This document shows positions 918 to 23,178 of a stretch of 32,000 bases of DNA, piece after piece. The translations under genes were made by a program, and so were the position numbers. The notes under the pieces were generated by a model, which saw only the letters and a program-made list of their open reading frames with translations, was not told the origin of the DNA and did not search any database. The DNA comes from Candidatus Saccharimonadota bacterium (GTDB lineage Archaea; Micrarchaeota; Micrarchaeia; Micrarchaeales; Micrarchaeaceae), in assembly GCA_963705375.1 (NCBI GenBank), contig OY970071.1:1170001-1202000 (forward strand), written 5' to 3'. Position 1 is the first letter of the stretch. Every line of letters begins with the position of its first letter.

Positions 918-1033
918 TCAATTACAGTAAATAATTAGTTTATCTAGATATACGCCTTGCTTTTTGATACGGCTTTTGACGTAGGGCTTTGCAGCATGCT
1001 CTATATCGCATGTACCGATATGCCAGAGCAAAG

Positions 1034-1041
1034 GTATATAT
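1034..1041 (+). promoter_or_regulatory. TATA-box-like element upstream of the first surface-protein gene
   Basis: gtatatat embedded in aaaggtatatattcg. The in-frame ATG at 1061 lies 27 nt downstream (leaderless option) and ATG 1178 lies further on. Confidence 0.35.
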
Positions 1042-1177
1042 TCGTTTAAGGAGCTCAATTATGCTTGTGGGATGTTGCAATCTGGCTATGCAACGTTCGT
1101 TGCCAGGTAGTGGTAAGAATAACGTGGAAATACGTGCGGTAGAGGGTGCGCTGGAGGGGGGTGTGATAAACGGCAAT

Positions 1178-3535
1178 ATGTTCAGAATCTTAGCCTTGCT
1201 TTCTCTGTTTGTAGGAATATTCTTTATGTCCGGCGTCGCCGGAGCAGTGACTGTGCCCACATCGATTACTTCCTACCTGCCCATAACGATCCAAAACGCA
1301 CAAACCTATGCGTTCCCATCAAACGCCCAAGTGCCAATTTCTTTTAACGCATTGGCATACCAATCATACGAATCAAACAGCCTCAACAATACCGAATTCT
1401 TCTTTGCGAACGGCACGATAATACCATCATGGCTTGAGGGCAACACTCTTAACGAGAATAATGCGGCAAATACCCTATACAAGAGTGCTAATGTTCTCTT
1501 CTGGTTGAGGATCTATCCAAGCAACAGCTTCTTCTGCGCATCATGCTCAAACACCATCTATCTCGGATTCGCTTCAAAAACCACAAGCATGCTAAGCAGC
1601 ACTATAACCGGCGAAGCACCACAGTTAAGCTCTTCTTATGGCGCTTATGATGACGGTGCAAACGTCTTTGCACTATATGACGACTTTACAGGCACAGCAC
1701 TGAACGCCAGATGGACCGAATGGGACTCATCTGCCGGAACGTTAGCTGTCTCAAACAGCCTTTCGCTCACGGCAACTTCCACTTCGCACGCATTTGGGGT
1801 GTATGTATCATATACTCCGACAACAAATGGAATTGTTACAGAAACATACCTTACTGCTACAAACCCGACTGCAGGATATAGGCTCTTCGAAGGATACGGC
1901 ACTCTTAGCTCATCAACTGCAGAACAGAACGGATATATCGGCAGGCTTGATGGAAATGGCAATCAGGCCCTTTATTTGTCTAGAATGTCTGCTGGAGTCC
2001 AGGCGGACATCTCAAACACACCTGACGTCTTGACGACTGGTGGCAACTACGTAAGCAGTCTTCTATGGCAGGGTAATTCTAATTCTCTATCCTTTGCTGA
2101 TCTGACTAATGGTCATTCGCTGCTTGCCACCAATACCCTCTATGGCCTTCCAAGCATGGCCCAAGTCTCAATCGCGCTTGGCGCTGCCACCAGCAACCAC
2201 TACATCACGCACTGGTTCCGGATAAGGCAGGCTCTTCCCAACAACGGAGTAGTTCCAACAGAAACATCTGGTGTGGTCACTCTTGCTGGCCTAACGGCAA
2301 CCCCTGACCCATACACGCTCACGAACACCTCCATAGACGTTAAGCAGATTTCGATTGCAAACACGATCATATCTGGAGGCACTTCCGGCACGACTTCCTA
2401 TACTGGCAACTGGGTATGGTCTCCACCCGCTTCATCAAACATAGTGCTCAGCAATACGATAATAGCTGCAATTCCAACAACAAACAACGCGCTGACGCTC
2501 ACAATCAACGCAGTCTCATCAAACAGCCTGAAGATGACTTTCAACGGCATAGTATATTATGCGAACGCGATAGGCACGAACACGATCTACGGGACATGGA
2601 CATTCAATGCGTTCGCAAGCGACGCTAACCATGATGCTGGTCCAAGCCCGGCTCTTACAAACACCCTAACAATATCAGCAACGCCGACTATCTCGGCACC
2701 GACGCCAACCAGTTCGAAGGTTGATGTCGGACAGACCCAGACAATAACCGCGACGATAACAGGAGGAACTCCGAACTACGTAGGAAACGCGATCATAACG
2801 AACTCAGGTTCGATAACGAACACGATCGCAGTACCGTCACAGTCAGGAACCTCATTGTCATCAACATGGACGACCGCTTCCAACGAGATAGGAACAGAGA
2901 CAGGAAACTTCGTGATGAAAGACGCAGTTTCAGTATCCTTCAACTCAATACCCTCAACATCATGGACCGTGTACAACACACTCTCCACACTGACAACGAC
3001 CGGTGCGACAATAGACAACGGACAGTCCAACACGATAACGGCAAGTTGGATCGGAGGCGCACCGAACTTCGCAGTCACATTGTTCTCAGGTTCTTCTGCA
3101 ACATGTTCATCTGACACGACTGTCGCGAACACGGCAGCATCTGTTTCAGGTCAATCGACGACATTCGTTGTCTCTCCGACCTCTTCAACATACTACTGCA
3201 TAGGGGTCAAGGACTCTGCGACATCTGCAGTCTCCGCAAACCAGGTGACTGCGGTTCAGATAGTGGTCAACCCGGCATTATCTATAACAAGTGTCTGGTC
3301 ATCGAACAGCATCGCAGACCAGTCACAATACGAGACAATAACCGGTTCATGGACAGGGGGCACATCTCCGTTCACAGCCAACTTCTACATCACAAACACG
3401 ATAACCGGAAACGTTATCGCAAATTCGCTCACGTCTACGACTTCACCTGCAACATTCACATTCCAGGTGCCCCAGACCAACGACGCACTAGGAGCGCCTC
3501 TGATCACGTTCACAGTTACGGATCAGAGCGGGTAA
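1178..3535 (+). CDS. secreted surface protein: signal peptide + DUF2341-like + LamG/ConA-like lectin region + Ig-like domains (B, A, cap); no membrane anchor
   Basis: ORF 989..3535. Likely start is ATG 1178 (MFRILALLSLFVGIFFMSGVAGA is a signal-peptide-like h-region); ATG 1061 is the alternative. 'PITIQN...NTEFFFANGTIIPSWLEGN...VLFWLRI...IYLGF' fits the DUF2341 pattern. 'GEAPQLSSSYGAYDDGANVF...HWFRIRQALPNNGVVP' fits the adjoining LamG/ConA-like domain. About 130 unique aa follow, then one B-type and one A-type ~99-aa domain and an ~85-aa terminal domain ending TFTVTDQSG*. There is no hydrophobic C-terminus. Confidence 0.85.
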   Translation: MFRILALLSLFVGIFFMSGVAGAVTVPTSITSYLPITIQNAQTYAFPSNAQVPISFNALAYQSYESNSLNNTEFFFANGTIIPSWLEGNTLNENNAANTLYKSANVLFWLRIYPSNSFFCASCSNTIYLGFASKTTSMLSSTITGEAPQLSSSYGAYDDGANVFALYDDFTGTALNARWTEWDSSAGTLAVSNSLSLTATSTSHAFGVYVSYTPTTNGIVTETYLTATNPTAGYRLFEGYGTLSSSTAEQNGYIGRLDGNGNQALYLSRMSAGVQADISNTPDVLTTGGNYVSSLLWQGNSNSLSFADLTNGHSLLATNTLYGLPSMAQVSIALGAATSNHYITHWFRIRQALPNNGVVPTETSGVVTLAGLTATPDPYTLTNTSIDVKQISIANTIISGGTSGTTSYTGNWVWSPPASSNIVLSNTIIAAIPTTNNALTLTINAVSSNSLKMTFNGIVYYANAIGTNTIYGTWTFNAFASDANHDAGPSPALTNTLTISATPTISAPTPTSSKVDVGQTQTITATITGGTPNYVGNAIITNSGSITNTIAVPSQSGTSLSSTWTTASNEIGTETGNFVMKDAVSVSFNSIPSTSWTVYNTLSTLTTTGATIDNGQSNTITASWIGGAPNFAVTLFSGSSATCSSDTTVANTAASVSGQSTTFVVSPTSSTYYCIGVKDSATSAVSANQVTAVQIVVNPALSITSVWSSNSIADQSQYETITGSWTGGTSPFTANFYITNTITGNVIANSLTSTTSPATFTFQVPQTNDALGAPLITFTVTDQSG

Positions 3536-3806
3536 TTCCGTATCAGCAACCAACATAACGCTAGATTTCAGCTGCACCAAACGTATATATACTCTCTATA
3601 CCGTGATTAAAGAAAGGGTTAGTGTCATAGCTGGCAAGTATACGCGAGGGTGGCTGTGCAAGATTTGTCGTTAGGTAACGGAGATACCATGGCTGTTGAG
3701 CTTAAGGTACAGAAGAAGGCTTCTTCGAAGAACAACGTATTGCGGCTTGTTTTCCTCTCATTTATCATTCTTCTGTTTTTGTTCGGGACCGGTGTTTCTT
3801 TTGCGG
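3257..3806 (+). repeat. junction cassette copy 1 (3' cap domain of gene 1 + stop + intergenic promoter/leader + signal-peptide codons of gene 2)
   Basis: Aligns base-for-base with 5123-5673, with only scattered substitutions (roughly 95% identical by eye). Weaker (~80%) homology extends upstream through the A-type domain from ~2990. Confidence 0.85.
3583..3592 (+). promoter_or_regulatory. TATA-box-like element of gene 2 (duplicated at 5450-5459)
   Basis: gtatatatac in caaacgtatatatactctc, about 95 nt upstream of ATG 3689. ggag (3678-3681) sits 7 nt before that ATG as a possible Shine-Dalgarno. Confidence 0.4.
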
Positions 3807-5401
3807 CAGGTTGCGGAACCCTTCCATCAGGCGTGTCTTCGTTTGTAGCATCATGCTACCCTGTAAACATAATCAACAGTCAGACACGCGCAACGTCTTC
3901 AGGTCTGCAGGTTAAGCTATCCAGCTATCCTGTCAACGCGCTTGCTGGCAACACCTTCGTGTACAACTCTGTTTCCGGGATGCAGATGCCCGCATGGGTC
4001 GAGTCCAACGGCATAGTGTGGGTGAACCTTGGCGCAAACACAATAGCTGCCAGTTCCTCAGCCAACAGTATCTATTATGTGGCAGTTGGCGGCTCTGGCA
4101 CAAACTTCTTCACTTCTGGCAACAACATAGGCGAAGCACCGCAATTGTCCGGCAGCAACACTGCGACAGGATATGGCACTTACGATAATGGAGCAAGCGT
4201 GTTCACGCAGTATGGTGGAAAGAGCTGGGCATCCTTCACGCCTGAGAACGGCGTATGGTTGACGTCAAACGGCTTCTTACAGCAAACGTCAAACACTGCA
4301 GGATCTACAACAAATGGCGGCGCTGCTGAAGTCATAACGGGTGCTTCGTACTCTGCAACCGGCAACTACATTCTAGAGCAGGCATTCAACTACTCCAACA
4401 ACGCAGTCGCAAGAGTCGGCATACTTGCAGTCGGAACGGTTGGTACTCAGAACGACGTCTATGCTTATAGGTTCATCGGCCAGCAGAACAACAACGGTGC
4501 AGGATTCTTAAGCTTCTTGAACGACCAAGTGGTATGGGTCGTAAACAACGCCTATCAGGGCGCTATGAACACTGCCTACACTATGTCCGTGACTGATGCT
4601 GCGGGCACATGGAGTGGAAATCTCATCTCAGGCTACAATACTGGTGGGGCTGTACTGACAAGCCTTGCAGCGACGGCGTACTCAACAGCAAACAAGCAAA
4701 GTGCAACTACTGGCTATGTTGGCATAAGTGCATCATGGTACAATGGCGCCAACACTGTGGCCAACCCGCTTGATGTCCAGTGGTTCAGGATGCGAACGTA
4801 TCCTCCTAATGGCGTCATGCCGACCGTGAACTATCTGGCTGCGATATCGCATCCTTATTCTCCATCAACAACTGGCGCAACAATAGATAACGGCCGGTCA
4901 AACACGATAATTGCTAGCTGGTTAGGTGGCGTGGCTAACTTCGCGATCACGTTATTCTCAGGTTCATCATCAACATGTTCATCTGACACAACTGTCGCCA
5001 ACACGGCATCATCTGTCGCAGGACAGTCAACGACATTCGTTGTTTCTCCGACGAGCAACACATACTACTGCATAGGGGTCAAGGACGCTAACGCAGGAGT
5101 TGCGAATCAGGTCACTGCAAATCAGATAGTGGTCAACCCTGTACTATCCATCACAAGTGTCTGGTCATCGAACAACATCGCAGACCAGCTTCAGTATGAG
5201 ACGATAACCGGTTCGTGGACAGGAGGTACATCTCCGTTCACAGCCAACTTCTACATCACAAACACGATCAACGGAAACGTTATCGCAAATTCGCTCACGT
5301 CTGCGACTTCACCTGCGACATTCACATTCCAGGTGCCCCAGACCAACAATGCGCTAGGAGCGCCTCTGATCACGTTCACAGTTGCTGATCAGAGCGGGTA
5401 A
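3689..5401 (+). CDS. secreted surface protein: signal peptide + DUF2341-like + LamG/ConA-like lectin region + A-type Ig-like domain + cap domain; no membrane anchor
   Basis: ORF 3650..5401, where the track start is a GTG. ATG 3689 is preceded by ggag and gives MAVELKVQKKASSKNNVLRLVFLSFIILLFLFGTGVSFA (basic n-region plus h-region). 'YPVNIINSQ...NTFVYNSVSGMQMPAWVESNGIVWVNL...IYYVAVG' is DUF2341-like. 'GEAPQLSGSNTATGYGTYDNGASVF...VQWFRMRTYPPNGVMP' is LamG-like. The C-terminal ~190 aa are paralogous to the gene 1 C-terminus and end TFTVADQSG*. Confidence 0.85.
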   Translation: MAVELKVQKKASSKNNVLRLVFLSFIILLFLFGTGVSFAAGCGTLPSGVSSFVASCYPVNIINSQTRATSSGLQVKLSSYPVNALAGNTFVYNSVSGMQMPAWVESNGIVWVNLGANTIAASSSANSIYYVAVGGSGTNFFTSGNNIGEAPQLSGSNTATGYGTYDNGASVFTQYGGKSWASFTPENGVWLTSNGFLQQTSNTAGSTTNGGAAEVITGASYSATGNYILEQAFNYSNNAVARVGILAVGTVGTQNDVYAYRFIGQQNNNGAGFLSFLNDQVVWVVNNAYQGAMNTAYTMSVTDAAGTWSGNLISGYNTGGAVLTSLAATAYSTANKQSATTGYVGISASWYNGANTVANPLDVQWFRMRTYPPNGVMPTVNYLAAISHPYSPSTTGATIDNGRSNTIIASWLGGVANFAITLFSGSSSTCSSDTTVANTASSVAGQSTTFVVSPTSNTYYCIGVKDANAGVANQVTANQIVVNPVLSITSVWSSNNIADQLQYETITGSWTGGTSPFTANFYITNTINGNVIANSLTSATSPATFTFQVPQTNNALGAPLITFTVADQSG

Positions 5402-5673
5402 TTCCGTATCTGCAACCAACATAACGCTAGATTTTCGCTGCAACCAAACGTATATATACTCTCTATACCGTGATTAAAGAAAGGGTTAGTGTCATAGCTG
5501 GCAAGTATACGCGAGGGTGGCTGTGCAAGATTCGTCGTTAGGTAACGGAGATACCATGGATGTGGGGCTTAAGGTACAGAAGAAGGCTTCTTCGAAGAAC
5601 AACGTATTGCGGCTTGTTTCCCTTTCTTTTATCATTATTCTGTTTTTGTTCGGGACCGGTGTTTCTTTTGCGG
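5123..5673 (+). repeat. junction cassette copy 2 (3' cap domain of gene 2 + stop + intergenic promoter/leader + signal-peptide codons of gene 3)
   Basis: Direct repeat of 3257-3806, including the non-coding 150 bp, the TATA element and the ggag-ATG context. Confidence 0.85.
5450..5459 (+). promoter_or_regulatory. TATA-box-like element of the giant surface-protein gene
   Basis: The same gtatatatac element as 3583-3592, inside the duplicated cassette. ATG 5556 is preceded by ggag. Confidence 0.4.
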
Positions 5674-8600
5674 GTAGTTCCGCATCGGCGACCAACACAT
5701 TCGGCGTCAACGCGCTGCTCACTTCACTTTCAACGACAGGCGCGACGATAGACAATGGCCAGTCCAACACGATAACGGCAAGTTGGACAGGCGGAACATC
5801 GAACTTCGCAATCACCCTCTTCTCAGGTACATTGTCTACCTGCTCCTCTGACACCACTGTCGCTAACACGGCATCTGGCGTTTCTGGGCATTCAACGACA
5901 TTCGTTGTGTCGCCAACCAGCAACACATACTACTGCATAGGTGTGAAGGACAGCGCATCCACTGCCAACACCGCGAACCAGGTAACTGCAGTCCAGATAG
6001 TGGTCAATGCCGCACCGTCCATTTCGCAGCCAACGCCGACAAGTGCGAAGGTCGACGTCGGACAAACGCAGACCATAACCGCGACAATAACGGGCGGAAC
6101 ACCGAACTACGTAGGAAACGCGATCGTAACGAAAGTGGGAGTTATCACAAATACCATTGCAGTTCCTTCACAGGCAGGAACATCACTGACATCAACATGG
6201 ACAACTGCATCTAACGAGATCGGAACAGAGACTGCAAACTACGTGATGAAGGATTCGCTGTCCACATCATTCAACTCAGTCCCATCAACATCCTGGACTG
6301 TTTACAACACGCTCTCTACTCTGACAACGACAGGCGCGACGATTGACAATGGCCAGTCCAACACGATAACCGCGAACTGGATTGGCGGCGCACCGAACTT
6401 CGCAGTAACACTCTTCTCAGGTTCATCCGCAACATGCTCATCTGACACGACTGTCGCGAACACCGCATCAGGCGTCTCAGGTCAATCGACGACATTCGTC
6501 GTCTCTCCAACCAGCAGCACATACTATTGCATAGGTGTGAAGGACTCTGCCTCTACGGCAGTCTCCGCGAACCAGGTCACTGCGGTGCAGATAGTGGTCA
6601 ATGCAGTACCTTCCGTATCACAACCGACTCCGACAAGTGCGAAGGTCGACGTCGGCCAGACACAGACAATAACCGCGACGATAACAGGCGGAACTCCGAA
6701 CTACGTAGGAAACGCGATCATAACAAAAGCAGGAGTTCCCACTAACACTATCGCAGTCCCATCTCAGGCAGGAACTGCACTGTCCTCAACATGGACGACC
6801 GCTTCCAACGAGATAGGAACAGAGACAGGAAACTTCGTGATGAAGGACTCGCTCTCAACATCATTCAACTCAGTCCCATCAACATCCTGGACTGTTTACA
6901 ACACGCTCTCTACTCTGACAACGACAGGCGCGACGATTGACAATGGCCAGTCCAACACGATAACCGCGAACTGGATTGGCGGCGCACCGAACTTCGCAGT
7001 AACACTCTTCTCAGGTTCATCCGCAACATGCTCATCTGACACGACTGTCGCGAACACCGCATCAGGCGTCTCAGGTCAATCGACGACATTCGTCGTCTCT
7101 CCAACCAGCAGCACATACTATTGCATAGGTGTGAAGGACTCTGCCTCTACGGCAGTCTCCGCGAACCAGGTCACTGCGGTGCAGATAGTGGTCAATGCAG
7201 TACCTTCCGTATCACAACCGACTCCGACAAGTGCGAAGGTCGACGTCGGCCAGACACAGACAATAACCGCGACGATAACAGGCGGAACTCCGAACTACGT
7301 AGGAAACGCGATCATAACAAAAGCAGGAGTTCCCACTAACACTATCGCAGTCCCATCTCAGGCAGGAACTGCACTGTCCTCAACATGGACGACCGCTTCC
7401 AACGAGATAGGAACAGAGACAGGAAACTTCGTGATGAAGGACTCGCTCTCAACATCATTCAACTCAGTCCCATCAACATCCTGGACTGTTTACAACACGC
7501 TCTCTACTCTGACAACGACAGGCGCGACGATTGACAATGGCCAGTCCAACACGATAACAGCGAACTGGATTGGCGGCGCACCGAACTTCGCAGTAACATT
7601 ATTCTCAGGTTCATCATCAACATGTTCATCTGACACGACTGTCGCGAACACCGCATCAGGCGTCTCAGGTCAATCGACGACATTCGTCGTCTCTCCAACC
7701 AGTAGCACATACTATTGCATAGGTGTGAAGGACTCTGCCTCTACGGCAGTCTCCGCGAACCAGGTCACTGCGGTGCAGATAGTGGTCAATGCAGTACCTT
7801 CCGTATCACAACCGACTCCGACAAGTGCGAAGGTCGACGTCGGCCAGACACAGACAATAACCGCGACGATAACAGGCGGAACTCCGAACTACGTAGGAAA
7901 CGCGATAATAACAAAAGCAGGGGTTCCCACTAACACTATCGCAGTCCCATCTCAGGCAGGAACTGCACTGTCCTCAACATGGACGACCGCTTCCAACGAG
8001 ATAGGAACAGAGACAGGAAACTTCGTGATGAAGGACTCGCTCTCAACATCATTCAACTCAGTGCCTTCGACATCGTGGACCGTGTACAACACACTCTCCA
8101 CACTGACAACTACCGGCGCAACAATCAACAATGGACAAAGTAACACTATAACCGCGAACTGGATAGGAGGTGCGCCGAACTTCGTTGTAACATTATTCTC
8201 CGGTTCATCATCTACCTGTTCCTCTGACACGACTGTTGCCAACACGGCATCAGGTGTCTCAGGACAATCGACGACATTCGTTGTGACTCCATCAAGTAGT
8301 ACCTACTACTGCATAGGAGTCAAGGACTCTGCTTCAACAGCGGTTTCCGCGAACCAGGTAACCGCAGTCCAGATAGTGGTGAATGCTGGACCCTCAATAT
8401 CGCAGCCAACCCCGACAAGTTCGAAGGTTGATGTGGGACAGACGCAGACCATATCAGCGACAATAACGGGCGGAACACCGAACTACGTAGGAAACGCGAT
8501 AATAACGAACTCAGGGGCGACTACGAACACTATCGCAGTCCCATCTCAGGCAGGAACTGCACTGTCCTCAACATGGACGACCGCTTCCAATGAGATAGGA

Positions 8601-11123: not shown

Positions 11124-11955
11124 CAGCGAACTGGATCGGAGGCGCGCCGAACTTCGCAGTAACATTATTCTCAGGTTCATCATCAACATGTTCATCTGAC
11201 ACAACTGTCGCGAACACCGCATCAGGCGTCTCAGGTCAATCGACGACATTCGTCGTCTCTCCAACCAGCAGCACATACTACTGCATAGGAGTCAAGGACT
11301 CTGCGACATCCGCGGTCTCCGCGAACCAGGTCACTGCGATGCAGATAGTAGTCAATGCCGCACCTTCAATCTCACAACCAACACCTACAGCTGCTAAGGT
11401 CGATGTCGGACAGACCCAGACAATATCTGCGACAATAACAGGCGGAACACCGAACTACGTAGGAAACGCGATAATAACGAACTCAGGGGCGACTACGAAC
11501 ACTATCGCAGTCCCGTCACAGGCAGGAACATGCATTGTCCTCAACATGGACAACTGCTTCTAACGAGATCGGAACAGAGACTGCAAACTTCGTGATGAAG
11601 GATTCGCTGTCCACATCATTCAACTCAGTCCCATCAACATCCTGGACTGTTTACAACACGCTCTCTACTCTGACAACGACAGGCGCGACGATTGACAATG
11701 GCCAGTCCAACACGATAACCGCGAACTGGATTGGCGGCGCACCGAACTTCGCAGTAACATTATTCTCAGGTTCATCAGCGACATGTTCATCTGACACGAC
11801 TGTCGCGAACACCGCATCAGGCGTCTCAGGTCAATCGACGACATTCGTCGTCTCTCCAACCAGCAGCACATACTACTGCATAGGAGTCAAGGACTCTGCT
11901 TCAACAGCGGTTTCCGCGAACCAGGTCACTGCGGTGCAGATAACAGTCAATGCCG
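5717..11955 (+). repeat. coding tandem array, 594-bp period (A+B domain pair, 198 aa), about 10.5 copies
   Basis: Unit starts fall at 5717, 6311, 6905, 7499, 8093, 8687, 9281, 9875, 10469, 11063 and 11660; the last interval is 597 bp because of the two indels. Copies 6311-6904 and 6905-7498 read as identical by eye, and the others differ by a few percent. Periodic antisense shadow ORFs in the track (6316, 6910, 7504...) reflect the same period. Confidence 0.95.
11114..11531 (+). other. frame-shifted internal segment of the giant surface-protein gene (normal A10/B10 repeat sequence readable only in the other frame)
   Basis: From 11114 the shifted frame reads NTITANWIGGAPNFAVTLFSGSSSTCSS...MQIVVNAAPSISQPTPTAAKVDVGQTQTISATITGGTPNYVGN...PSQAGT without stops. 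Track ORF 11339..11563 is part of it. It is bounded by a +2 indel (ggacaAAgtccaac, 11103-11116) and a +1 indel (aacatGcattgtcc, extra g at 11532). Confidence 0.8.
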
Positions 11956-14900
11956 CACTAGGAATGCCTTTAATCTCTCCGACAACTGCAACAATCGACA
12001 ACGGCCAGTCGATATCGATGACTGCAAGTGAGACTGGAGGGACTATTCCATACACGTATTCCTGGTACGCACAGACAAGTTGTGGAGGTTCGGTGGTCAA
12101 CACAGGCTCTTCATATTCACCATCTCCGAGCTCAACAACCACTTACTCAATAAAAGTGACAGACAACGCAGGAGCGACATCTTCCTGCTCATCAGGAACG
12201 ACCGTGACAGTTGACACTCCAAGTGCCTTACTGACCGTATCAAACACGATAGCAGACTCAGGACAGTATGAGGTCCTTACTGCGACAGTTACGGGCGGAG
12301 TCGGGCCATACACTGTTAAATTCTACAACATCAGCAAGTCTGCAGTATTCAACACAGTCTCAAGTGTGGCATCTTCAACAACGAACGCATTCGTGGTATC
12401 AAGCCCGACAAACTCGAACACCTTCAACTGGAACGTCATAGTGATAGACACGACTACCTCTGGCTCGTTCACATTCAACTCTCCATCTAATTCGTTCACG
12501 GTCAACACTATGCTTGCAACGCCTTCGATCTCTCCATCGAACCCTGTATTCGATAACGGTCAGTCAACAACGCTTACTGCAATCGAAACAACGAGCGGAA
12601 CGCTTCCGCTTTCGTATCAGTGGTATTCTGATGGTGCCTGCACAACCCCGATAAGCGGTCAGACTGGAGCAACTTACTCGCCAGCATCATCAGGCACATA
12701 CTCTGTCAAAGTGACTGATTCTGCTTCGACTCAAGCATCGCAATGCTCGTCCAGTGACACAGTAACCATAAGTTCATCTGCACTTTCGGCAGGCACGGTT
12801 ACCGAAAGCAACACTGCTATTGATGTTGGCCAGAATTCCCTGCTTACTGCCAATCCAAGCGGTGGCACGGCACCTTATACCTACCAGTGGTATTCTGGTA
12901 CTTCTCCAACTGGTACACTAATATCTGGAGCAACAAGCCAGACCTTGCTCGTAAGCCCATCAGCCACTACAAGCTATTATGCATCCATAACAGACAGTGC
13001 GACAACACACGTTACTTCTAATTCAATTTCAAACACCATAACTGTTTACAACACACCGACCGTGACAATCACCAACCCATCGCTCACAGAAGACGTCGGC
13101 CAGTCCGTGACCTTCACCACAACCAACACACCAGGTTCGGGCTCAGACACATACCAGTGGTACAACACGACTTCCGGCATCGTTCAGATTTCGGGCCAGA
13201 CTGGCACTTCACTTACAGTCTCGGGCGGCGCAATAGGCACCTTCACCTATAATGTTGTCATAACCGATTCTAACGGGGCGAAATCTACGTCTGGTACAGG
13301 TTCTGTTGTAGTTTATGCATTACCGACCGTGACAATCACCAACCCATCGCTCACAGAAGACGTCGGCCAGTCCGTGACCTTCACCACAACCAACACACCA
13401 GGTTCGGGCTCAGATACATACCAGTGGTACAACACAACTTCGGGCGTCGTTCAGATTTCAGGCCAGACGGGCACTTCGCTTACAGTCTCGGGCGGCGCAA
13501 TAGGCACCTTCACCTATAATGTTGTCATAACCGACTCAAACGGAAAGAAAGCAACATCCGGCACAGGCTCTGTTGTTGTAGGTAATGCACCATCTGTTAC
13601 TATAACCAATCCATCTCTTTCTGAAGGGGTGGGTCAAAGTGTGACCTTCACCACAACGAACACTCCCGGTTCGGGCTCAGACACCTACCGTTGGTATAAC
13701 ACGACTTCGGGCGTTGTCGCAATTCCTGGCCAAACTGGCACTTCGCTTACAGTTTCTGGCGGCGCAACAGGCACATTCACCTATAATGTCGTAATAACAG
13801 ATTCCAACGGGGCTAAAGCAGCATCTGGTACAGGGACTGTTGTTGTCACTGCAGCACCAACAGTGACGATAACTAACCCCTCTCTTGCAGAGGGAATTGG
13901 CCAATCTGTGACCTTCACCACAACCAACACACCAGGTTCGGGCTCAGACACCTACCAATGGTACAACACCACTTCTGGCATCGTTCAGATTTCAGGCCAG
14001 ACTGGCACTTCACTTACCGTTTCTGGCGGTGCAATAGGCACATTCACTTACAACGTGATCATAACCGACTCTCACGGCCTGCATTCGTCTTCGAATACTG
14101 GCACGGTTGTTGTCACAAACGCTCCGACAGTCACAATCACCAACCCTTCACTAAACGAGGACATCGGCCAGTCCGTGACATTTACCACAACGAACACGCC
14201 AGGTTCGGGTTCGGACACCTACCAGTGGTACAACACCACTTCAGGCGTTGCCGTAATGTCCGGCCAGACCGGCACTTCTCTCATGGTAACGGGTGGAGCA
14301 ACAGGCACCTTCGCCTATAATGTTGTCATAACTGACTCTGTGGGAAAGAGCGCGACATCGAATGCAGGAACGGTTGTTGTTGGCAACGCACCAACAGTCA
14401 CAATTACCAATCCGTCGCTTTCAGAAGTTGTCGGTCAGAATGTTGTATTCGCCACAACCAACACTCCTGGTTCGGGCTCAGACACCTACCAGTGGTACAA
14501 CACCACCTCTAGCGTTGCCGTAATGTCAGGCCAGACAGGTACTTCTCTGACTGTGCCAGGCGGAGCCACCGGAACATTTACCTATAATGTGGTCATAACA
14601 GACTCCTACGGTGCGAAATCTTCATCGAATACAGGAAACGTTGTAGTCAATGTGTATGTTCCGGGCACCATCTCGGCGCCGACACCAAGTCTATCCGTAT
14701 CTGATGTTGGGCAGTCCGTAGTTTACAATGCGGTCATAACCGGCGGTGCAGGGCCGTTCGTAGCTAACTTCGTATATTCCAATGGCACTGTCGCAAACAC
14801 CTTGTTCGCCAACACTCTGATGAGCTCAAGTGCCAGGTCTTTGACATTCAATTCTATACATCTGTCAACAGGTACCTATACTTACAACATAGTGGTAACA

Positions 14901-17315
14901 GATATCGACGCTCCACCATCTCCGTATGTGTTCAACTCAGTTTCTAACACGATGACTGTCAATCCTGCCTTAAGCTTTAATGTATCCCCGTTCTACAGCG
15001 TCATAGATCCTGGCCAGAACGTTATCTTCACAAATTCGACAACCGGCGGGACCCCCCTATACACCTACACATACCTGACCAATGCCTCTACAACACCGTC
15101 CAATAACGTTTACTCTTTCCCGACATCAGGCACATATTATGTTCTTGAGAAAATAACCGATGCTGCTGGCTCTAATGTTGTCCCGTTCAACTCTATCGTT
15201 TATGTCAGGCCTGTCCTGAAAGTCTCGATCAGCCCACCAAATAGCGTGGTGACCGGTGACGGGCAGACGTACACGTTCTTTGCAAACGCCACTGGCGGAA
15301 TCGGCCCGATGACATACACTTGGAACACCGGTGGCCTTACTGTACAATCAGGATGCGGGACATTGAGTTCTGTCTGTGTGGTCAGCACGACTGGTGCGGC
15401 GTCGGTGTCTCCTTACACAGTCAACGTACAGATCAGCGATTCTAAAGGATACGTTTCGAATACCGCACAGACCTCTCTGACTGTCGGCAGTGCGACTGCA
15501 GGTGAGATACTGCCAGGTAACGAGACGATAGAGAATGGTCAGAGCATTACCATGTCTGTGAACACCGTGTCATTGCCTGGCACAGGGCCTTACACCTATC
15601 AATGGTACCTGAACGGCGCACCTGTAGGCACAAATTCGTCGTCTTACGTGTTCAATGGAAATTCCTCAACACTTGCAGTCTTTAATAATCAGCTCAGTGT
15701 TACAATAACCAGTAACTCTATAAGTCCGATAACGTCACCGTCAGTCTATGTTGCTGTCCAGCCTGCTCTGTCGATAACCTCAATCTCACCATCGTCGACC
15801 GTCAACACTATCGTAGGCAATGGGATAATACCGATATCAGTCTCAACATCCGGCGGATTCGGCACTCTCAACTACTCATGGTCGATGCCAAACGGTGCCG
15901 CATCATGCCCTGGCTACGTAAGCTCAGGTCCTACAGCTAACTCTTTCGTTTACTATCCGTCAGGAAACACCTCTTCCTGCATATTCTCTGTCAGCATCAC
16001 AGACTCTCTCGGCGGCGGACCGGTGACATCCAGCACTCAAACGATCAAGGTCGGAACTGCGCCTCCAGTCTCGATTACAACAACGATACCCCATGGAGGT
16101 GCTGGGTCGACCACCATAGCGCAGTCTTCAACTTCAGCAGCAGCACCGCAGATACAATTGACGCAAACAACCCTGCTCAGCAGCATAACTGCTGGAGCAA
16201 CTAGCGTGTCTGCACTTGGCCTCAAGGATTCGGGAACCGTGCCGGAAGTCGTAAGCCTATCAGTTCCGAGTACCTATTCGAACTTCTTCAACCTTTCCGC
16301 AACAAACTTCCTGTTGCAATCCGGCCAGAGCGTGCTGATAAACATGGCGTTCAACGCGACAAAGGTCGCTCCTGGCCTATACACGATACCTGTGAGCATA
16401 TCCGCAACGACGAGCAGCAGCTCTTCCGTTGCGCGGAGCACACAGGTTATCACCTACAGCGTTGTGAATGTATCAAATCTTGACGTCGTAAGCCAGCAGT
16501 TGTACAGCAATAACAACGTTAGTGTGACAATAGCCATACACAACCCGAAGAATGTAAGCTTAAGGAACGCCACGCTTGAGGTTGTACTGCCGCCATATGT
16601 CGTCACAAACGCCTCACAAATAAAGGTGAATGGCAACGCGACGATAACGTTCGTTAACGGCCAGCCGCACATAACTTGGTCAGTACTCAACGCACCAAAG
16701 AATGGCGCAGCGTTTGTTACTTTCAACATAGCAAAGCCGTCTAACTACCAGCTAATGACTTTGATGCAGAACTTACTCGTGGTGCCCTCTCCTGGCTCAT
16801 TGCAGTTGCTGCAGGTGTTCGACATAAGTGTGCCGACATTGTACACCAGTTCAACGAACCAGATAACGCTGCAGGCGCTGTACACAGGATCGATAAACCA
16901 GGATGTTGACTTCATACTGAGTTCGATAGGCGGCGACATCTCGATAACGAATCCATTATCGACAGTCTATGCGTATCCCCAAGAGCAATTGAACCGCAGC
17001 TTCACCATAATCACCCACAATTCTGTAGGTACTGGCACGTTCCTGCTCACTGTGAGAACGCTAGGCGCAGAGATAAACTACACAATACCTGTTATGATAC
17101 TCCAGAAACCTACGCAGCATCCCGCAAGTGCTGCCGAAGTTCTTAGTGCCTTGGTGGCAAAGTATGGCCGGTATGTGCTGTATGCTTTTGTTGCCGTAGC
17201 TGTGGCTGCTCTAGCCCTCCGTGCGATAAACGAACGCCGCGGTGGAAAGAGGCACCGGTTCAACGAAGAGCTCAGAGAGGTCGGGGGCGAGCTGGCAAGG
17301 TCTAAAAAGTCATAG
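11535..17315 (+). CDS. giant surface protein, C-terminal portion (same frame as 5556..11123): Ig/PKD-like domains, CARDB/NEW3-like modules, C-terminal TM anchor
   Basis: 11535 is only the first in-frame TTG after the second indel, not a real start; 5556 and 11535 are both in frame 0 mod 3. Content in order: the last A domain, diverse ~85-95-aa domains with PKD-like 'Y.Y.WY...G..Y.V.VTD..G' signatures, 6 x 89-aa repeats, then beta-sandwich modules ('LLQSGQSVLINMAFNATKVAPGLYTIPVSISA'). It ends in the TM helix YVLYAFVAVAVAALALRAI plus the basic tail NERRGGKRHRFNEELREVGGELARSKKS*. Confidence 0.8.
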   Translation: MSSTWTTASNEIGTETANFVMKDSLSTSFNSVPSTSWTVYNTLSTLTTTGATIDNGQSNTITANWIGGAPNFAVTLFSGSSATCSSDTTVANTASGVSGQSTTFVVSPTSSTYYCIGVKDSASTAVSANQVTAVQITVNAALGMPLISPTTATIDNGQSISMTASETGGTIPYTYSWYAQTSCGGSVVNTGSSYSPSPSSTTTYSIKVTDNAGATSSCSSGTTVTVDTPSALLTVSNTIADSGQYEVLTATVTGGVGPYTVKFYNISKSAVFNTVSSVASSTTNAFVVSSPTNSNTFNWNVIVIDTTTSGSFTFNSPSNSFTVNTMLATPSISPSNPVFDNGQSTTLTAIETTSGTLPLSYQWYSDGACTTPISGQTGATYSPASSGTYSVKVTDSASTQASQCSSSDTVTISSSALSAGTVTESNTAIDVGQNSLLTANPSGGTAPYTYQWYSGTSPTGTLISGATSQTLLVSPSATTSYYASITDSATTHVTSNSISNTITVYNTPTVTITNPSLTEDVGQSVTFTTTNTPGSGSDTYQWYNTTSGIVQISGQTGTSLTVSGGAIGTFTYNVVITDSNGAKSTSGTGSVVVYALPTVTITNPSLTEDVGQSVTFTTTNTPGSGSDTYQWYNTTSGVVQISGQTGTSLTVSGGAIGTFTYNVVITDSNGKKATSGTGSVVVGNAPSVTITNPSLSEGVGQSVTFTTTNTPGSGSDTYRWYNTTSGVVAIPGQTGTSLTVSGGATGTFTYNVVITDSNGAKAASGTGTVVVTAAPTVTITNPSLAEGIGQSVTFTTTNTPGSGSDTYQWYNTTSGIVQISGQTGTSLTVSGGAIGTFTYNVIITDSHGLHSSSNTGTVVVTNAPTVTITNPSLNEDIGQSVTFTTTNTPGSGSDTYQWYNTTSGVAVMSGQTGTSLMVTGGATGTFAYNVVITDSVGKSATSNAGTVVVGNAPTVTITNPSLSEVVGQNVVFATTNTPGSGSDTYQWYNTTSSVAVMSGQTGTSLTVPGGATGTFTYNVVITDSYGAKSSSNTGNVVVNVYVPGTISAPTPSLSVSDVGQSVVYNAVITGGAGPFVANFVYSNGTVANTLFANTLMSSSARSLTFNSIHLSTGTYTYNIVVTDIDAPPSPYVFNSVSNTMTVNPALSFNVSPFYSVIDPGQNVIFTNSTTGGTPLYTYTYLTNASTTPSNNVYSFPTSGTYYVLEKITDAAGSNVVPFNSIVYVRPVLKVSISPPNSVVTGDGQTYTFFANATGGIGPMTYTWNTGGLTVQSGCGTLSSVCVVSTTGAASVSPYTVNVQISDSKGYVSNTAQTSLTVGSATAGEILPGNETIENGQSITMSVNTVSLPGTGPYTYQWYLNGAPVGTNSSSYVFNGNSSTLAVFNNQLSVTITSNSISPITSPSVYVAVQPALSITSISPSSTVNTIVGNGIIPISVSTSGGFGTLNYSWSMPNGAASCPGYVSSGPTANSFVYYPSGNTSSCIFSVSITDSLGGGPVTSSTQTIKVGTAPPVSITTTIPHGGAGSTTIAQSSTSAAAPQIQLTQTTLLSSITAGATSVSALGLKDSGTVPEVVSLSVPSTYSNFFNLSATNFLLQSGQSVLINMAFNATKVAPGLYTIPVSISATTSSSSSVARSTQVITYSVVNVSNLDVVSQQLYSNNNVSVTIAIHNPKNVSLRNATLEVVLPPYVVTNASQIKVNGNATITFVNGQPHITWSVLNAPKNGAAFVTFNIAKPSNYQLMTLMQNLLVVPSPGSLQLLQVFDISVPTLYTSSTNQITLQALYTGSINQDVDFILSSIGGDISITNPLSTVYAYPQEQLNRSFTIITHNSVGTGTFLLTVRTLGAEINYTIPVMILQKPTQHPASAAEVLSALVAKYGRYVLYAFVAVAVAALALRAINERRGGKRHRFNEELREVGGELARSKKS
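13056..14657 (+). repeat. coding tandem array, 267-bp period (89-aa PKD/Ig-like domain), 6 copies
   Basis: The unit PTVTITNPSLTEDVGQSVTFTTTNTPGSGSDTYQWYNTTSG..QISGQTGTSLTVSGGAIGTFTYNVVITDSNG...VVV recurs at 13056, 13323 and onward. The first two copies are nearly identical at nucleotide level; later copies are more diverged. Confidence 0.9.
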
Positions 17316-17391
17316 GCCTGACGCTTACTAGCATTGCGAAGACCCTACGAAAACTATAAAAACCAAGCCTGGACTTAAATAGCTGAGATAG

Positions 17392-19536
17392 ATGAGATAC
17401 TACCTGCTAATTACATATGCCATATTCTCTCTTCTGCTCGTTCCATGCCTTGCCTTGACCGGTCAGTCTGCTCTGGCAGGCACTACTAAAGTGGTGACAT
17501 CATGCCCTATATATCTCTCATCCCAGTTTTCGCCACTATATTTGCACGCTTCCAACATAGCGCTCAATTATACGATCTTTACCGGCTCAACGTGCTATGC
17601 TCCAAACCTGAAAGGCGTGCTCGCTGTTTATCATGCAAATAACGGTTCCGTAGCGTATACAACAAACAATGTCCCTCTCTACCTGGTCGACAACACCCCT
17701 GCAAGTCTCAGCATACCTGTAACGACTGCAACGCCTCTTCCAGAAGGCAGTTATGAAGCGACTCTAAATATTTCATTAAACAAATCATCTACTCTGACTA
17801 CTTCCGAATTCAACGTATTCAATCCTGCCGATGTCATATTGAAGAACTTCTCAATAACCCAGGAACCACTATTCCAAAGAACGCAGGCTGTGTTTGTCCT
17901 GGGAATACTGAACAATGGCAGCCTCGCTTCAGGGCCTATTGTGCTGTACCTGAACGTGTCTGGCCCCAGGAACTATAATATTACTGAGAGCATTGACCCG
18001 CTCGCCTCTGGCCAGTCTGAGCAAATCGCACTTGTGTTGAAAAATATAACAGACGTAGCGGGGTCATATTCTGCAAGCGTCAGCGCGGTTCAAGCCTTCA
18101 ACACCACAAGAACTAGCTCGAATACTGCCTCATTAACATATAATGTGACCGTGCCTCAACAGCAGCAAGCGTCAAACTCTTCCTACGTGTTCAATACAGT
18201 AGTGCCTCTGGAGTATTCGGCAATATCGCAATTTCCTTTCTATCTGCAGCTAGCACCAGGTGTCCTTTCCGGCTACAACATCGGTTTCGAGAATACTCAA
18301 AGCCAGACTGAGACGTTCTCTATTGTTGCACCTAGCGCGTTCAAGGATGTGATTAGCCTCTCGGCCAAAAATGTATCGTTACCTGCCGGTCAGATCATCG
18401 AGATCCAATCCCTTTTGAACGTAAAGAGCACGATGCTCCCTGGAACATACTATGTGCCGCTCGACGTAAGTGTCGGGCTCAACAGCGGCAGGGTCTACTC
18501 TGCCGTACAGCCACTCAATTTCCAGGTGCTGTACCCGACAAACAGCATAGACTCCAGAACACAGATATTGGCAAGCACCACAAATACGCTGCTGAACCGT
18601 GCTTCAGTGTCCATAACTGCCTATAGCCCTCTAAACGAGACGCTGAATAATGTCACGCTGATAACCACGCTCCCAAGGAACACGATCTCGAATCTCTCAC
18701 AACTGGGCACGTCAGCGCAAGGAGGTAACGCGACGATGGCTGGAAACACGGCCTCGATATCGTGGTTCATCCCGACAATCTTTGCAGGGCAGATTTCGAC
18801 AGTGTATTACTTCATTTCAAACCCAAACAACATAATCACGTTGCCCTATGCGCAAGAGCTTTTGATAATTCCCTCATTCCCAAACATTAGCAGCATGATA
18901 AAAACAGTGAAGATATCTAACCTCACTCTGTTGACCAATCTGATAGGGCAAGAAAACATCTCATTCTTCTATACTGGCTCACAACCGCAGAACATCACCG
19001 TTTCATTGATTCCAAAGAGCTATGTCTCTGTTACGCGCCCTCAAAAAGTTTATGCTATGCCTAACCAACGCATAGAGCGCACTTTTAACATATCGAGCGA
19101 AGTAACTGGCACGTTCGTGTTAACTGCCGAGATCGCCACTTCAAACGCCAGCATATCGTACAAGACTTCCGCCATATTCTTACCCCCTGCCACTACTACC
19201 ACAATTAATCAAACAACGTCGATTCCGATTGACGTCGTATCGCCTGCTGAAAAATTTGTGGCGCAGTACGGCGATGAAATCCTAAAAATACTGATTTATT
19301 TTGTGGCTTTTGCTATTGTCGTAGTGCTCTTGGTGGAGTTGTCATTGCTTTACCTGAAGCATACGAAAAAAGTGCGAGACGAGAGGCTTCTCGGAAAGGT
19401 AGAAAGTGCCTTAGAGACGGATGAACGCTCTAGGCAGAAAGAACGTATCTATGCTAGGCCTAGAAGAAAAAAGGTCTCGAAGAAGAATAGCGAGCCAAAA
19501 CACAAAATAAACAATAAGCGGCGCAGGAAGCGGTAA
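17392..19536 (+). CDS. surface-anchored protein: signal peptide, CARDB/NEW3-like beta-sandwich modules, C-terminal TM helix and Lys/Arg-rich tail
   Basis: N-terminus MRYYLLITYAIFSLLLVPCLALTGQSALAG. The CARDB-like stretch is 'VILKNFSITQEPLFQRTQAVFVLGILNNGSLASGPIVLYLNVSG...LASGQSEQIALVLKNI..AGSYSASVSA'. The NEW3-like stretch is 'LSAKNVSLPAGQIIEIQSLLNVKSTMLPGTYYVPLDVSV'. NxS/T sequons are very frequent. The C-terminal TM is ILIYFVAFAIVVVLLVELSLLYL, followed by KHTKKVRDER...RRKKVSKKNSEPKHKINNKRRRKR*. A TATA-like aactataaaa lies at 17352-17361. Confidence 0.85.
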   Translation: MRYYLLITYAIFSLLLVPCLALTGQSALAGTTKVVTSCPIYLSSQFSPLYLHASNIALNYTIFTGSTCYAPNLKGVLAVYHANNGSVAYTTNNVPLYLVDNTPASLSIPVTTATPLPEGSYEATLNISLNKSSTLTTSEFNVFNPADVILKNFSITQEPLFQRTQAVFVLGILNNGSLASGPIVLYLNVSGPRNYNITESIDPLASGQSEQIALVLKNITDVAGSYSASVSAVQAFNTTRTSSNTASLTYNVTVPQQQQASNSSYVFNTVVPLEYSAISQFPFYLQLAPGVLSGYNIGFENTQSQTETFSIVAPSAFKDVISLSAKNVSLPAGQIIEIQSLLNVKSTMLPGTYYVPLDVSVGLNSGRVYSAVQPLNFQVLYPTNSIDSRTQILASTTNTLLNRASVSITAYSPLNETLNNVTLITTLPRNTISNLSQLGTSAQGGNATMAGNTASISWFIPTIFAGQISTVYYFISNPNNIITLPYAQELLIIPSFPNISSMIKTVKISNLTLLTNLIGQENISFFYTGSQPQNITVSLIPKSYVSVTRPQKVYAMPNQRIERTFNISSEVTGTFVLTAEIATSNASISYKTSAIFLPPATTTTINQTTSIPIDVVSPAEKFVAQYGDEILKILIYFVAFAIVVVLLVELSLLYLKHTKKVRDERLLGKVESALETDERSRQKERIYARPRRKKVSKKNSEPKHKINNKRRRKR

Positions 19537-19588: not shown

Positions 19589-20086
19589 ATGGGTGGGGAT
19601 ATAGTTTATTTGGACGTAGACAGACGCGCCTTAAAAGACATAAAATATATTAGGCTTAAGACCATACTCTCCACCGTGGGTAGCATTTCTACGGGTGTGC
19701 TGCAGATGTCTCTATTGAAACTTATCGGCGCACCACAATTCAAAGGCAAGGTGTCAGGCGAATGTGTGCGATACTTATATGCTTCTGCCTTCTTGAGCTT
19801 TGCCGGTAGGGAAATAAACAAAAAATCCCTTAGTTCTGTGCTAAAAAGTGTGGGCATAAAGCCGAAAGAAGAATGCATAAATACCTTCCTAAAGACTGGC
19901 ATCGAGAGCCATTTGGTGTATTTATACGCATATTATTTCCTACTTGCTAATAGGCTAGCGGCCTCTGACGAAAACATGTCCGGAGTGATAAAATCTCTTG
20001 GAATGAAACCCGATAAAGAACGGATAAATGCCGCGCGCGGTTTTGTACGGATATACCCATTCACACCTGCCCCGAAAATACGATAG
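19589..20086 (+). CDS. ribosomal stalk protein P1 (L12Ae) N-terminal-domain-like protein, tandemly duplicated domain, no acidic C-terminal tail
   Basis: '(V)RYLYASAFLSFAGREINKKSLSSVLKSVGIKPKEECINTFLKTGIE' and 'LVYLYAYYFLLANRLAASDENMSGVIKSLGMKPDKERINAARGFV' each align well with the archaeal P1 N-terminus as I recall it ([47 protein letters not shown]). A weaker third copy may lie at the N-terminus (IKYIRLKTILSTVGSIS...LKLIGAPQFK). The protein ends RIYPFTPAPKIR* with no Ala/Glu/Lys-rich linker or tail. The start is uncertain: ATG 19589, or GTG 19766 directly before RYLYA. Confidence 0.65.
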   Translation: MGGDIVYLDVDRRALKDIKYIRLKTILSTVGSISTGVLQMSLLKLIGAPQFKGKVSGECVRYLYASAFLSFAGREINKKSLSSVLKSVGIKPKEECINTFLKTGIESHLVYLYAYYFLLANRLAASDENMSGVIKSLGMKPDKERINAARGFVRIYPFTPAPKIR

Positions 20087-22382: not shown

Positions 22383-22860
22383 TTGTAACACCAAACTCCT
22401 GCAGATACTTGTCCAATGTCTTGAGGAATGTGCTCTCGTCCATCGGGCATCCCGGCACCTCGTCATCCACCACCACTATGTCCTTCACAGAACGGACCTT
22501 TTCTGTCTGGTTGAAGCGCACGAGCAAGAATGCGATCTTTTTCTTCAAGTTCTCGTCAAAAAGGTTCCTTTGCGCCGAAGGCATGCCGTTTATGGCGCAC
22601 GATCCTATTGCGACGAGTTTCTTGGAATTCTTCCGTATCTCCCTCAATTTCTTGGCGTCCTTTTCTGTAGTTATCGCGCCCTCAACAAAAGCGACGTCTA
22701 TGTCCCTAAGCACGTTATTCCTCTTCAGTACGCGCGCATGCCTTATGTCCAACTGCTCTTTCCACTTGAAGAAATTGTCGTTCATCAGCTCCGTCCACAG
22801 TATCGTGCTGTCTTCACTGCAGGTGAAGGAGAACCACCCTATCTTCAGTTTTTTCTTCAC
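22372..22860 (-). CDS. [NiFe] hydrogenase small subunit, minimal form (proximal Fe-S cluster domain only)
   Basis: 162 aa with a GTG start. 'KIGWFSFTCSEDS', 'VAIGSCAINGMP' and 'VPGCPMD' match the spacing of the proximal-cluster ligand motifs (normally CxxC ... GxC ... GCP). Only 3 Cys are present in total, and the first motif is C-S-E-D. There is no C-terminal ferredoxin-like extension for medial or distal clusters. It lies immediately upstream of, and overlapping, the large subunit. Confidence 0.8.
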   Translation of the reverse strand: MKKKLKIGWFSFTCSEDSTILWTELMNDNFFKWKEQLDIRHARVLKRNNVLRDIDVAFVEGAITTEKDAKKLREIRKNSKKLVAIGSCAINGMPSAQRNLFDENLKKKIAFLLVRFNQTEKVRSVKDIVVVDDEVPGCPMDESTFLKTLDKYLQEFGVTNAH

Positions 22861-22980: not shown

Positions 22981-23178
22981 ATGTGCCAGGCTCCTGTCGG
23001 GAAGGTTGTGACTGCAGAAAGTGGGAAACTTACGGTAAAATACAAGGGCAAGCTGTTCGAACTGAACTCAAAGCTTCCTGACGTAAAGGCTGGCGATTAT
23101 GTCCTGTTCTCGCTCGACATAGCCATAGACAAGGTCGACAAAGAAGAAGCAGAGGCCATCTTGGGTAAGATGAAATGA
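22981..23178 (+). CDS. hypC: hydrogenase maturation chaperone HypC/HupF family
   Basis: Track ORF 22957..23178. The real start is ATG 22981, giving the hallmark Met-Cys N-terminus: MCQAPVGKVVTAESGKLTVKYKGKLFELNSKLPDVKAGDYVLFSLDIAIDKVDKEEAEAILGKMK, which matches the HypC consensus MCLAIPGKV...GDYVLVH.G.A. A TATA-like ataaataat lies at 22947-22955. The gene is divergent from the hydrogenase structural genes. Confidence 0.9.
   Translation: MCQAPVGKVVTAESGKLTVKYKGKLFELNSKLPDVKAGDYVLFSLDIAIDKVDKEEAEAILGKMK

Follow-up and report, generated by a model that had tools for sequence, protein, structure and literature searches.

Lectin-like heads and an anchored stalk encoded apart in a micrarchaeal surface-protein cluster: probable recent fission of a mosaic adhesin by a duplicated promoter-plus-signal-peptide cassette

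Why would a micrarchaeon encode lectin-like surface proteins that lack an anchor directly beside an anchored fibre that lacks a head? The question is raised by a 32,000-nucleotide (nt) stretch of the 1.21-Mb contig OY970071.1 (GenBank assembly GCA_963705375.1, positions 1,170,001 to 1,202,000 of the forward strand; hereafter the window), in which four co-directional genes lie one after another on the + strand. Genes 1 (1178–3535, 785 amino acids (aa)) and 2 (3689–5401, 570 aa) encode the heads, gene 3 (5556–17315, ~3,900 aa if two indels described below are both ignored) encodes the stalk, and gene 4 (17392–19536) encodes a 714-aa anchored protein; the open reading frame (ORF) listing and the translations bore out the coordinates of genes 1, 2 and 4. 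A sequence-only reading of this DNA had proposed a dedicated split adhesin system, possibly switched by recombination. We consider it more probable, at roughly 60%, that the four genes form a mosaic, hypervariable set of adhesin genes whose head-on-stalk chain was recently severed, leaving secreted lectin-like proteins and an anchored fibre without a head.

The evidence for a cut comes from the regions that follow genes 1 and 2. Direct repeats, which the sequence-only reading had described for the A domains, were found far above chance both here, as an ~825-nt pair (2990–3815 and 4860–5682, + strand), and within the repeat array of gene 3, where exact repeats reach 701 nt. The ~825-nt repeat comprises an Ig-like domain (A), a second Ig-like domain (the cap), a frameshift stop, a linker remnant, a TATA-containing spacer, a start codon and a signal peptide, and the head of gene 2 (head2) is flanked by such units. 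Identity between the two copies is ~70–85% in the A domain and 94–96% from the middle of the cap through the spacer and the signal peptide, with a longest exact block of 90 nt (3576/5443).

Genes 1 and 2 end at the same scar. The stop of gene 1, which together with its linker remnant spans 3526–3575 (+), is created by a +1 insertion of a T, GA[T]CAGAGCGGGTAA, and the +1 frameshift in the stop and linker remnant of gene 2 (5392–5442, +) is identical to it. In related proteins the cap is followed by a linker, D-S-L-G-G-S-A-S-T-T-N-T-F-G-V-N, and then by more Ig domains. About 28 nt past the stops of genes 1 and 2 align with codons of this linker (GSASTTNT) on two related contigs, L002 and L004, and the same ~28-nt sequence recurs directly after the gene 3 signal peptide, with 24 of the 28 nt identical, coding for G-S-S-A-S-A-T-N-T-F-G-V-N.

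Each linker remnant is followed by a promoter-plus-signal-peptide cassette of ~230 nt, the two copies of which are 95% identical. Copy 1 (3576–3806, +) contains the element TATATATA at ~3583–3590, the ATG at 3689 and the signal peptide to ...GVSFA. Copy 2 (5443–5673, +) contains the element at ~5450 and joins the true linker at a GCGG microhomology. The near-identical signal peptides of genes 2 and 3, which had been recognised earlier, are part of a longer stretch (3576–3815 vs 5443–5682, 95% identical) that includes ~113 nt upstream of the ATG. The cassette is also 79% identical to the 5' region of the L002 gene (L002 7842–8069). A sigma-70 promoter/terminator scan predicted no more elements than expected from shuffled sequence, its model being bacterial and uninformative for an archaeon. 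Readthrough or frameshifting over the gene 2 stop was considered and rejected, since the de-shifted frame stops 26 codons on, inside the spacer.

The proposed order of events starts from an ancestral-type form such as that in relatives, which would have been one giant Sec-exported, C-terminally anchored head-on-stalk protein assembled from a DUF2341-like plus ConA-like head, Ig/PKD-like spacers and a membrane-proximal module with a C-terminal transmembrane helix. Genes 1 and 2 would have been cut at the identical +1 frameshift in the linker after the cap, and the cassette, bringing a TATA-like element, a start codon and a signal peptide, would have been inserted within the former inter-domain linker, where it may allow expression to start again, with head2 downstream of gene 1 and with the head-less stalk downstream of gene 2. 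The second copy of the segment from the 3' half of the cap through the stop and remnant to the cassette would be the product of a recent duplicative recombination, with one end in cap homology and the other at the GCGG microhomology in the linker. The predicted products are two free secreted lectin-like proteins, a short anchored paralogue (gene 4) and, if gene 3 is intact, an anchored Ig fibre tipped by an A domain. Evolution of the family as a whole would proceed by in-frame swaps of whole modules at domain boundaries and by growth and shrinkage of a 594-nt repeat array. Two occurrences of one frameshift stop and one cassette inside a former linker make the split look like a duplication accident of recent date. 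The same observations gave no support to a dedicated split adhesin system, the stops being frameshift scars with linker remnants.

Heads and stalks were found to be joined differently in related genomes. The closest genome match, L004, from a GTDB representative genome assembly of an uncultured Candidatus Micrarchaeota archaeon (83% protein and 85% nucleotide identity), has an uninterrupted ORF that reads signal peptide-head2-A-Y-X-cap-linker-Ig-Ig and on to the contig end. On L002, where coding crosses frames, head2 is succeeded by four cap-Ig units, many Ig domains and, at the C-terminus, a transmembrane helix and a cytoplasmic tail. L006 encodes signal peptide-head1-X-cap-linker-Ig-cap and further domains downstream of the PolD genes, head1 being the head of gene 1. 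Either head1 (L006) or head2 (L002, L004) is thus carried on the same kind of stalk at one PolD-adjacent site. A further homologue, P0053 (837 aa), is a single chain of signal peptide, head, A-like domain, cap-like domain, S/T linker, another domain and transmembrane helix. Since the connectivity of head and stalk differs among relatives, fusion, fission and head exchange must have occurred in the evolution of this family. Gene 1 has the makeup of an L006-type head1-X plus one 594-nt B-A unit and a cap (B being a further spacer domain), and gene 2 that of an L004-type head2-A joined straight to a cap. Judging from these alignments, close relatives have exchanged heads, signal-peptide cassettes and Ig units at domain boundaries. 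The cap, which had been taken for a terminal domain, is an ordinary Ig-like domain that occurs internally and in tandem in L002, L004, L006 and P0055, the last being an anchor-less beta-propeller protein of the window's own genome with an internal cap plus an A-like domain.

The genome scan returned one close relative and the metagenome scan one distant relative only. Two gene 1 homologues likewise bear a Micrarchaeota or Micrarchaeaceae label, as does one of the four homologues of gene 4, the only four found in a word-indexed search. Immediately upstream of the L004 head gene, a separate gene (L004 6867–9791, +) encodes a signal peptide, two Ig domains, the membrane-proximal module, a transmembrane helix and a ~100-aa cytoplasmic domain; the homologous module of L002 (74% nucleotide identity) forms the C-terminus of the giant gene, which is another rearrangement of the same parts. 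The L006 contig (ENA ERZ25039509 contig_153809) is a palindrome centred at ~11085, in which 7945–11086 reappears reverse-complemented at 11083–14343 and the PolD end reappears at 14575–15039. Because this contig is a foldback assembly chimera beyond ~11085, its first half alone was regarded as trustworthy.

All four proteins of the cluster begin with signal-peptide-like N-termini, as had been noted; by direct reading of the translations, a basic n-region leads into ~20 hydrophobic residues and then into a c-region of small residues. In gene 1 the signal peptide (1178–1246) is followed by head1 (DUF2341-like plus ConA-like, 1247–2290), an Ig-like domain X (2291–2683), B (2684–2977), A (2978–3268) and the cap (3269–3532), without an anchor; a GTG at 1163, aligned with the ATG of the L006 orthologue, is an alternative start. 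In gene 2 the signal peptide (3689–3805) is followed by head2 (3806–4855), A (4856–5134) and the cap (5135–5398), again without an anchor; head2 has a conserved Cys pair past the cleavage site and ends at WFRMRTYPPNGVMP. The domain plan given for both genes by the sequence-only reading, a DUF2341-like/ConA-like head followed by Ig-like domains, was retained, with X added in gene 1.

Sequence profiles recognised these heads poorly. DUF2341 (PF10102) matched gene 1 with 18.8 bits (E 0.0022) against a gathering cutoff of 23.4; Pfam gave no DUF2341 match in gene 2, and neither Laminin_G_3 (PF13385) nor another LamG profile matched gene 1 or gene 2. The assignment of the heads to DUF2341 and LamG was therefore weak by this approach. 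DUF2341 did match 24 of 65 aligned head homologues (best E 1.9e-9), and Pilin_N matched two homologues. Many homologues of the heads carry a precomputed PF10102 annotation, and PF13385 is precomputed on just a few distant ones. The DUF2341 membership of the heads thus appears to rest on homology and not on a direct match. A profile built from the family alignment found no match among PDB sequences.

Structure prediction was more informative. In an AlphaFold2 model of gene 2 for which the family alignment served as input, residues 40–390 were predicted at a predicted local distance difference test score (pLDDT) of ~90, and a Foldseek search of the PDB with this head returned CBM66, legume lectins, GH43 C-terminal domains and PL7 lyases (E 7e-6 to 2e-4, probability 1.0, TMt 0.45–0.64). 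The model confidence and the PDB matches together strongly support a predicted ConA-like lectin/glucanase (LamG-like) jelly-roll fold, and the earlier suggestion of lectin-type heads held up in this respect. The two heads are paralogues (29% identity, E 2e-15). Binding of a glycan or another ligand is presumed from the modelled fold, which is shared with enzymes and protein-binding LamG domains.

The head family is large: at E ≤ 1e-3 its profile matches 3,104 representative clusters, and at the stricter E ≤ 1e-30 still 1,610. Many members are 1,000–4,700 aa long, with the head N-terminal, C-terminal or repeated. P0051 (814 aa) contains two complete heads in tandem (head-Ig-head), and several giant proteins of the family search have up to nine matched stretches. 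Many homologues of ~500 aa begin with class III pilin-type N-termini, e.g. QSAMEYLMTYGW or RRGVSEI. By direct reading, no gene of the cluster has such an N-terminus, the motifs being of Sec/signal peptidase I-like type (...GVSFA|AGC, ...GVSFA|GSS and ...GVAGA|VTV).

The stalk and the spacers consist of tandem Ig-like/PKD-like repeats. The distal part of gene 3 matched Ig_3 (54.8 bits), K319L-like PKD (51.5) and Ig_7 (47.3) in Pfam, all over their cutoffs, and the A domain aligns with PKD/Ig_3-annotated domains of three other proteins (P0054, P0059 and P0061). A model of the B-A-cap segment contained three seven-stranded beta domains (pLDDT 72) that resemble tandem Ig/FN3/MG arrays. Otherwise Pfam and NCBIfam searches of the four proteins gave almost no matches for the heads, A, B, the cap or gene 4. 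Matches to Tim54, Zn_ribbon_DnaG, HTH_11 and TOBE on the gene 3 array were discarded as artefacts of weak scores summed over repeats.

Gene 3 continues from its signal peptide (5556–5672) and linker (5673–5726) into an A-B array (5727–11957), additional Ig/PKD-like domains (11958–16052), a membrane-proximal module (16053–17162), a transmembrane helix (~17172–17219) and a basic tail to 17312. Within the additional domains lies a second tandem array (13049–14644, +) of six 267-nt (89-aa) PKD-like units, which are 77% identical and share exact blocks of no more than 93 nt. The transmembrane helix and basic tail previously attributed to gene 3 were recovered, and gene 4 ends likewise, with a transmembrane helix at 19285–19350 and then a long basic tail. 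Following its signal peptide, gene 4 is a paralogue of the gene 3 membrane-proximal module (29% identity over 339 aa, E 9e-20).

No such anchor was found on genes 1 and 2, both of which terminate in ...DQSG*, as had been read earlier. The hydropathy of their last 60 residues is 0.6–0.7 (best 19-residue Kyte-Doolittle mean), compared with 2.85 in the transmembrane-anchored P0053, neither NCBIfam nor Pfam matched a C-terminal sorting signal of the PGF-CTERM/archaeosortase type, and the termini lie 2–3 residues beyond the last strand of an Ig-like domain. A lipobox in gene 2 (FAAG|C) was weighed as a hidden N-terminal anchor and judged not to be the likeliest interpretation. Sec-type relatives conserve the Cys pair that follows the cleavage site: the candidate lipobox Cys always has a partner 11–18 residues downstream, and the residues preceding it (SNPC, AYSC) are often not lipobox-like.

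The heads are therefore predicted to be free, which brings in the possibility that they function as one half of a two-component adhesin, docking non-covalently on the fibre or on gene 4 via A or the cap, much as SlaA does on SlaB. Such a layout has a precedent in the S-layer of Sulfolobales, in which SlaA is an anchor-less outer protein and SlaB a separately encoded stalk with a C-terminal transmembrane helix, and the idea of an anchor-less head and an anchored stalk is thus not without parallel. A-type domains are common to heads and stalk, P0055 is a third anchor-less protein of the same genome with a cap and an A-like domain, and the L004 head gene is also adjoined by a separate short anchored gene. 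We nevertheless regard this explanation as unlikely. The domains held in common are generic spacers, which every relative links covalently in one chain, and the stops are scars and not designed termini. Unlike SlaA/SlaB, the split in the window appears to be a recent scar and not a conserved two-gene design; none of the Pfam or NCBIfam matches of the four proteins belongs to an S-layer family, and the window, known from sequence, gives no sign of a lattice.

A different doubt concerns the integrity of the locus. The sequence-only reading had treated gene 3 as one ORF, and the assembly gives two in the same frame, 5517–11123 and 11535–17315. The 11 A domains counted earlier were confirmed, alongside 10 B domains, and the period of the array is strictly 594 nt except in unit 10, which has 597 nt owing to 2 extra nt at 11107–11108 and 1 extra nt at 11532. 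The segment between them (11107–11532, +) is out of frame, with an in-frame TAA at 11121–11123. Each indel is the union of two repeat variants: CAAAGT and CAGTCC at 11107–11108, giving CAAAGTCC, and ACATCA and ACTGCA at 11532, giving ACATGCA. Because such a union is typical of a consensus caller working on mixed repeat pile-ups, we lean slightly towards an assembly or polishing artefact over real indels. Should the indels be real, the stalk would be a pseudogene and the observation of an anchored stalk would fall. The number of array units is itself uncertain, since unit 2 cannot be told from unit 3 (100% identity) and exact repeats within the array extend to 701 nt.

It is accordingly conceivable that the locus is decaying, with gene 3 a true pseudogene and the heads leftovers, or that the split and the indels are both artefacts of near-identical repeats. 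The two frameshifts of unit 10 fall exactly where repeat variants differ, which indicates an imperfect assembly at this point, and the identity of units 2 and 3 bears on copy number in the same way. We give this explanation a low probability. The junction of signal peptide and linker in gene 3 is unique, in frame and located at a microhomology, which no assembler would invent; the same stop and remnant are present in two copies that differ by a few substitutions; L001, an independent contig built from short reads, bears out gene 4, the genes downstream and the 3' part of gene 3; and the other ORFs of the locus are long and intact. The locus is a caution that giant repeat-rich genes are prone to mis-calling.

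Several points also weigh against the fission that we favour. The heads of the window itself are below the Pfam threshold, and gene 3 would be no functional stalk if its frameshifts were real. The 3' end of the L004 gene lies off its contig, which places the anchor outside view, and L002 and L006 are noisy long-read contigs on which continuity across frames was reconstructed by eye; the PolC DP2 gene of L002 is likewise fragmented. Unlike the related loci, that of the window is not PolD-adjacent. Because the PolD synteny stops short of the window, the related loci may be paralogous and strict orthology cannot be claimed, and it is from the linker remnants, not from strict synteny, that we infer the gene to have been split.

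The repeats of this locus also suggested a recombination switch, in which a deletion between the A domain of gene 2 and one of gene 3 would place head2 on the stalk and act in the population as a toggle between secreted and anchored forms or as a head swap. Because the A domains are co-directional repeats, any homologous A-A deletion would be in frame by construction, and this part of the proposal stands. Head-on-stalk fusions do occur in relatives, whose heads differ at a single syntenic site, and recombination is active in the array, as seen from its concerted evolution (units 2 and 3, the 701-nt exact repeat). The substrate, however, is poor: the gene 2 A domain is 74–79% identical to those of gene 3, with exact blocks of 14–47 nt, and better substrates only resize the array (the 701-nt repeat) or delete or duplicate gene 2 (the 90-nt block). 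An A-A deletion is moreover irreversible and therefore not a switch. Among the window ORFs scanned, none has a recombinase, integrase or transposase domain; the window shows neither an invertible element nor an arrangement of silent cassettes, and the exact gene 2 protein occurs on a single contig only, with no variant junction seen. We thus consider the switch quite improbable. Head swapping is supported in an evolutionary form, by head1 and head2 at one site among relatives, and not as a switch; modular gene shuffling is evident, and the case for a switch is poor.

A related view would regard the locus as an expression site with cassettes, in which homologous recombination within populations joins complete head modules to a common anchored fibre or removes them from it. 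Ig-domain homology common to the modules would flank each head, along with a portable cassette of promoter and signal peptide, and the replacement of head1 by head2 between L006 and L002/L004 would be a fixed outcome of this process. If this were true, the ligand or host specificity of a DPANN symbiont would change and the secreted heads would be an alternative functional state. Cassette-based surface variation is known from Neisseria pilE/pilS, Mycoplasma genitalium MgPa/MgPar and Borrelia vlsE, and the window is similar to these systems in having repeated homologous modules beside a surface gene and relatives with different modules at one site. It differs in that there are no promoter-less silent cassettes, each head having its own promoter-like element and signal peptide, and in that homology at the relevant junctions is low. 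We judge this view to be very improbable.

For the cluster as a product of recent fission, the closest likeness is to surface proteins of the same kind of organism, Micrarchaeota and other DPANN archaea. In a cultured micrarchaeon, an expanded set of LamG-like proteins and giant PKD/CARDB surface proteins particular to the strain has been reported (Golyshina et al. 2017, PMC5498576). A role as pilus-tip adhesins has been proposed for the DUF2341 proteins encoded in archaeal type IV pilus loci (Makarova et al. 2016, PMC4858521). The LamG-DUF2341 proteins of this group share with the window the head family, the ConA-like fold and strain-specific giant Ig/PKD-repeat surface proteins. The pilin-type N-termini of many head homologues would fit the pilus-tip proposal (PMC4858521); the window heads, unlike DUF2341 pilus proteins, are of Sec type, without pilin N-termini, and lie outside a pilus locus. 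A split of head and stalk by a duplicated stop-promoter-signal-peptide cassette is not described for the systems of either study (PMC5498576, PMC4858521). What is unusual in the window is a well-documented mechanism of fission; the kind of system, strain-specific giant DPANN surface proteins with LamG-like modules, is a known one.

In layout, and not by demonstrated homology, the cluster also resembles giant bacterial fibrillar adhesins with Ig repeats, such as RTX adhesins of the MpIBP/LapA/SiiE type and Bap-like proteins. These too are built on a long extender whose tandem Ig-like domains are nearly identical; they carry ligand-binding modules distally and the anchor at the other end, and their repeat number is prone to recombinational change. 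In contrast to type 1 secretion with an outer-membrane plug or sortase, the window has an archaeal Sec signal peptide and a C-terminal transmembrane helix, and its presumed ligand-binding module is not part of the stalk gene.

DPANN archaea such as Micrarchaeota are host-attached, and their host-recognition molecules are largely unknown. The different heads of related strains at one site are concrete candidates for host-recognition modules, if the heads do take part in adhesion or host interaction. They belong to a lectin-fold family of >3,000 clusters that is displayed on pilin helices, on giant Ig fibres or, in the window, alone. No new machinery is involved; the main value of the locus is as a testable case of modular adhesin evolution, with a clear, datable example of gene fission in which a promoter-plus-signal-peptide cassette would have been copied into an inter-domain linker.

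Other features of the window lie around the adhesin cluster. To its left, a long ORF on the − strand (1–~920) runs off the window end and is not PolD. Directly after gene 4, an ORF of 165 aa (19589–20086, +) is weakly similar to the N-terminal domain of archaeal ribosomal protein P1 (TIGR03685, 31 bits, cutoff 100) and contains, by eye, two similar ...KSxGxKPxxExIN... segments. Just downstream of the cluster are a gene similar to the NiFe-hydrogenase large subunit (21060–22466, −; PF00374, E 1.5e-26, mainly in the C-terminal part) and a weakly HypC-like ORF (23175–23723, +). Rfam matched a tRNA at 30125–30220 (−) with 61.6 bits, and ARAGORN reported no tRNA in the window; the 96-nt span of the match suggests an intron-containing archaeal tRNA. 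A full-length serpin, a family uncommon in archaea, is encoded in this small genome at 27419–28699 (−; Pfam Serpin, E 1.6e-112).

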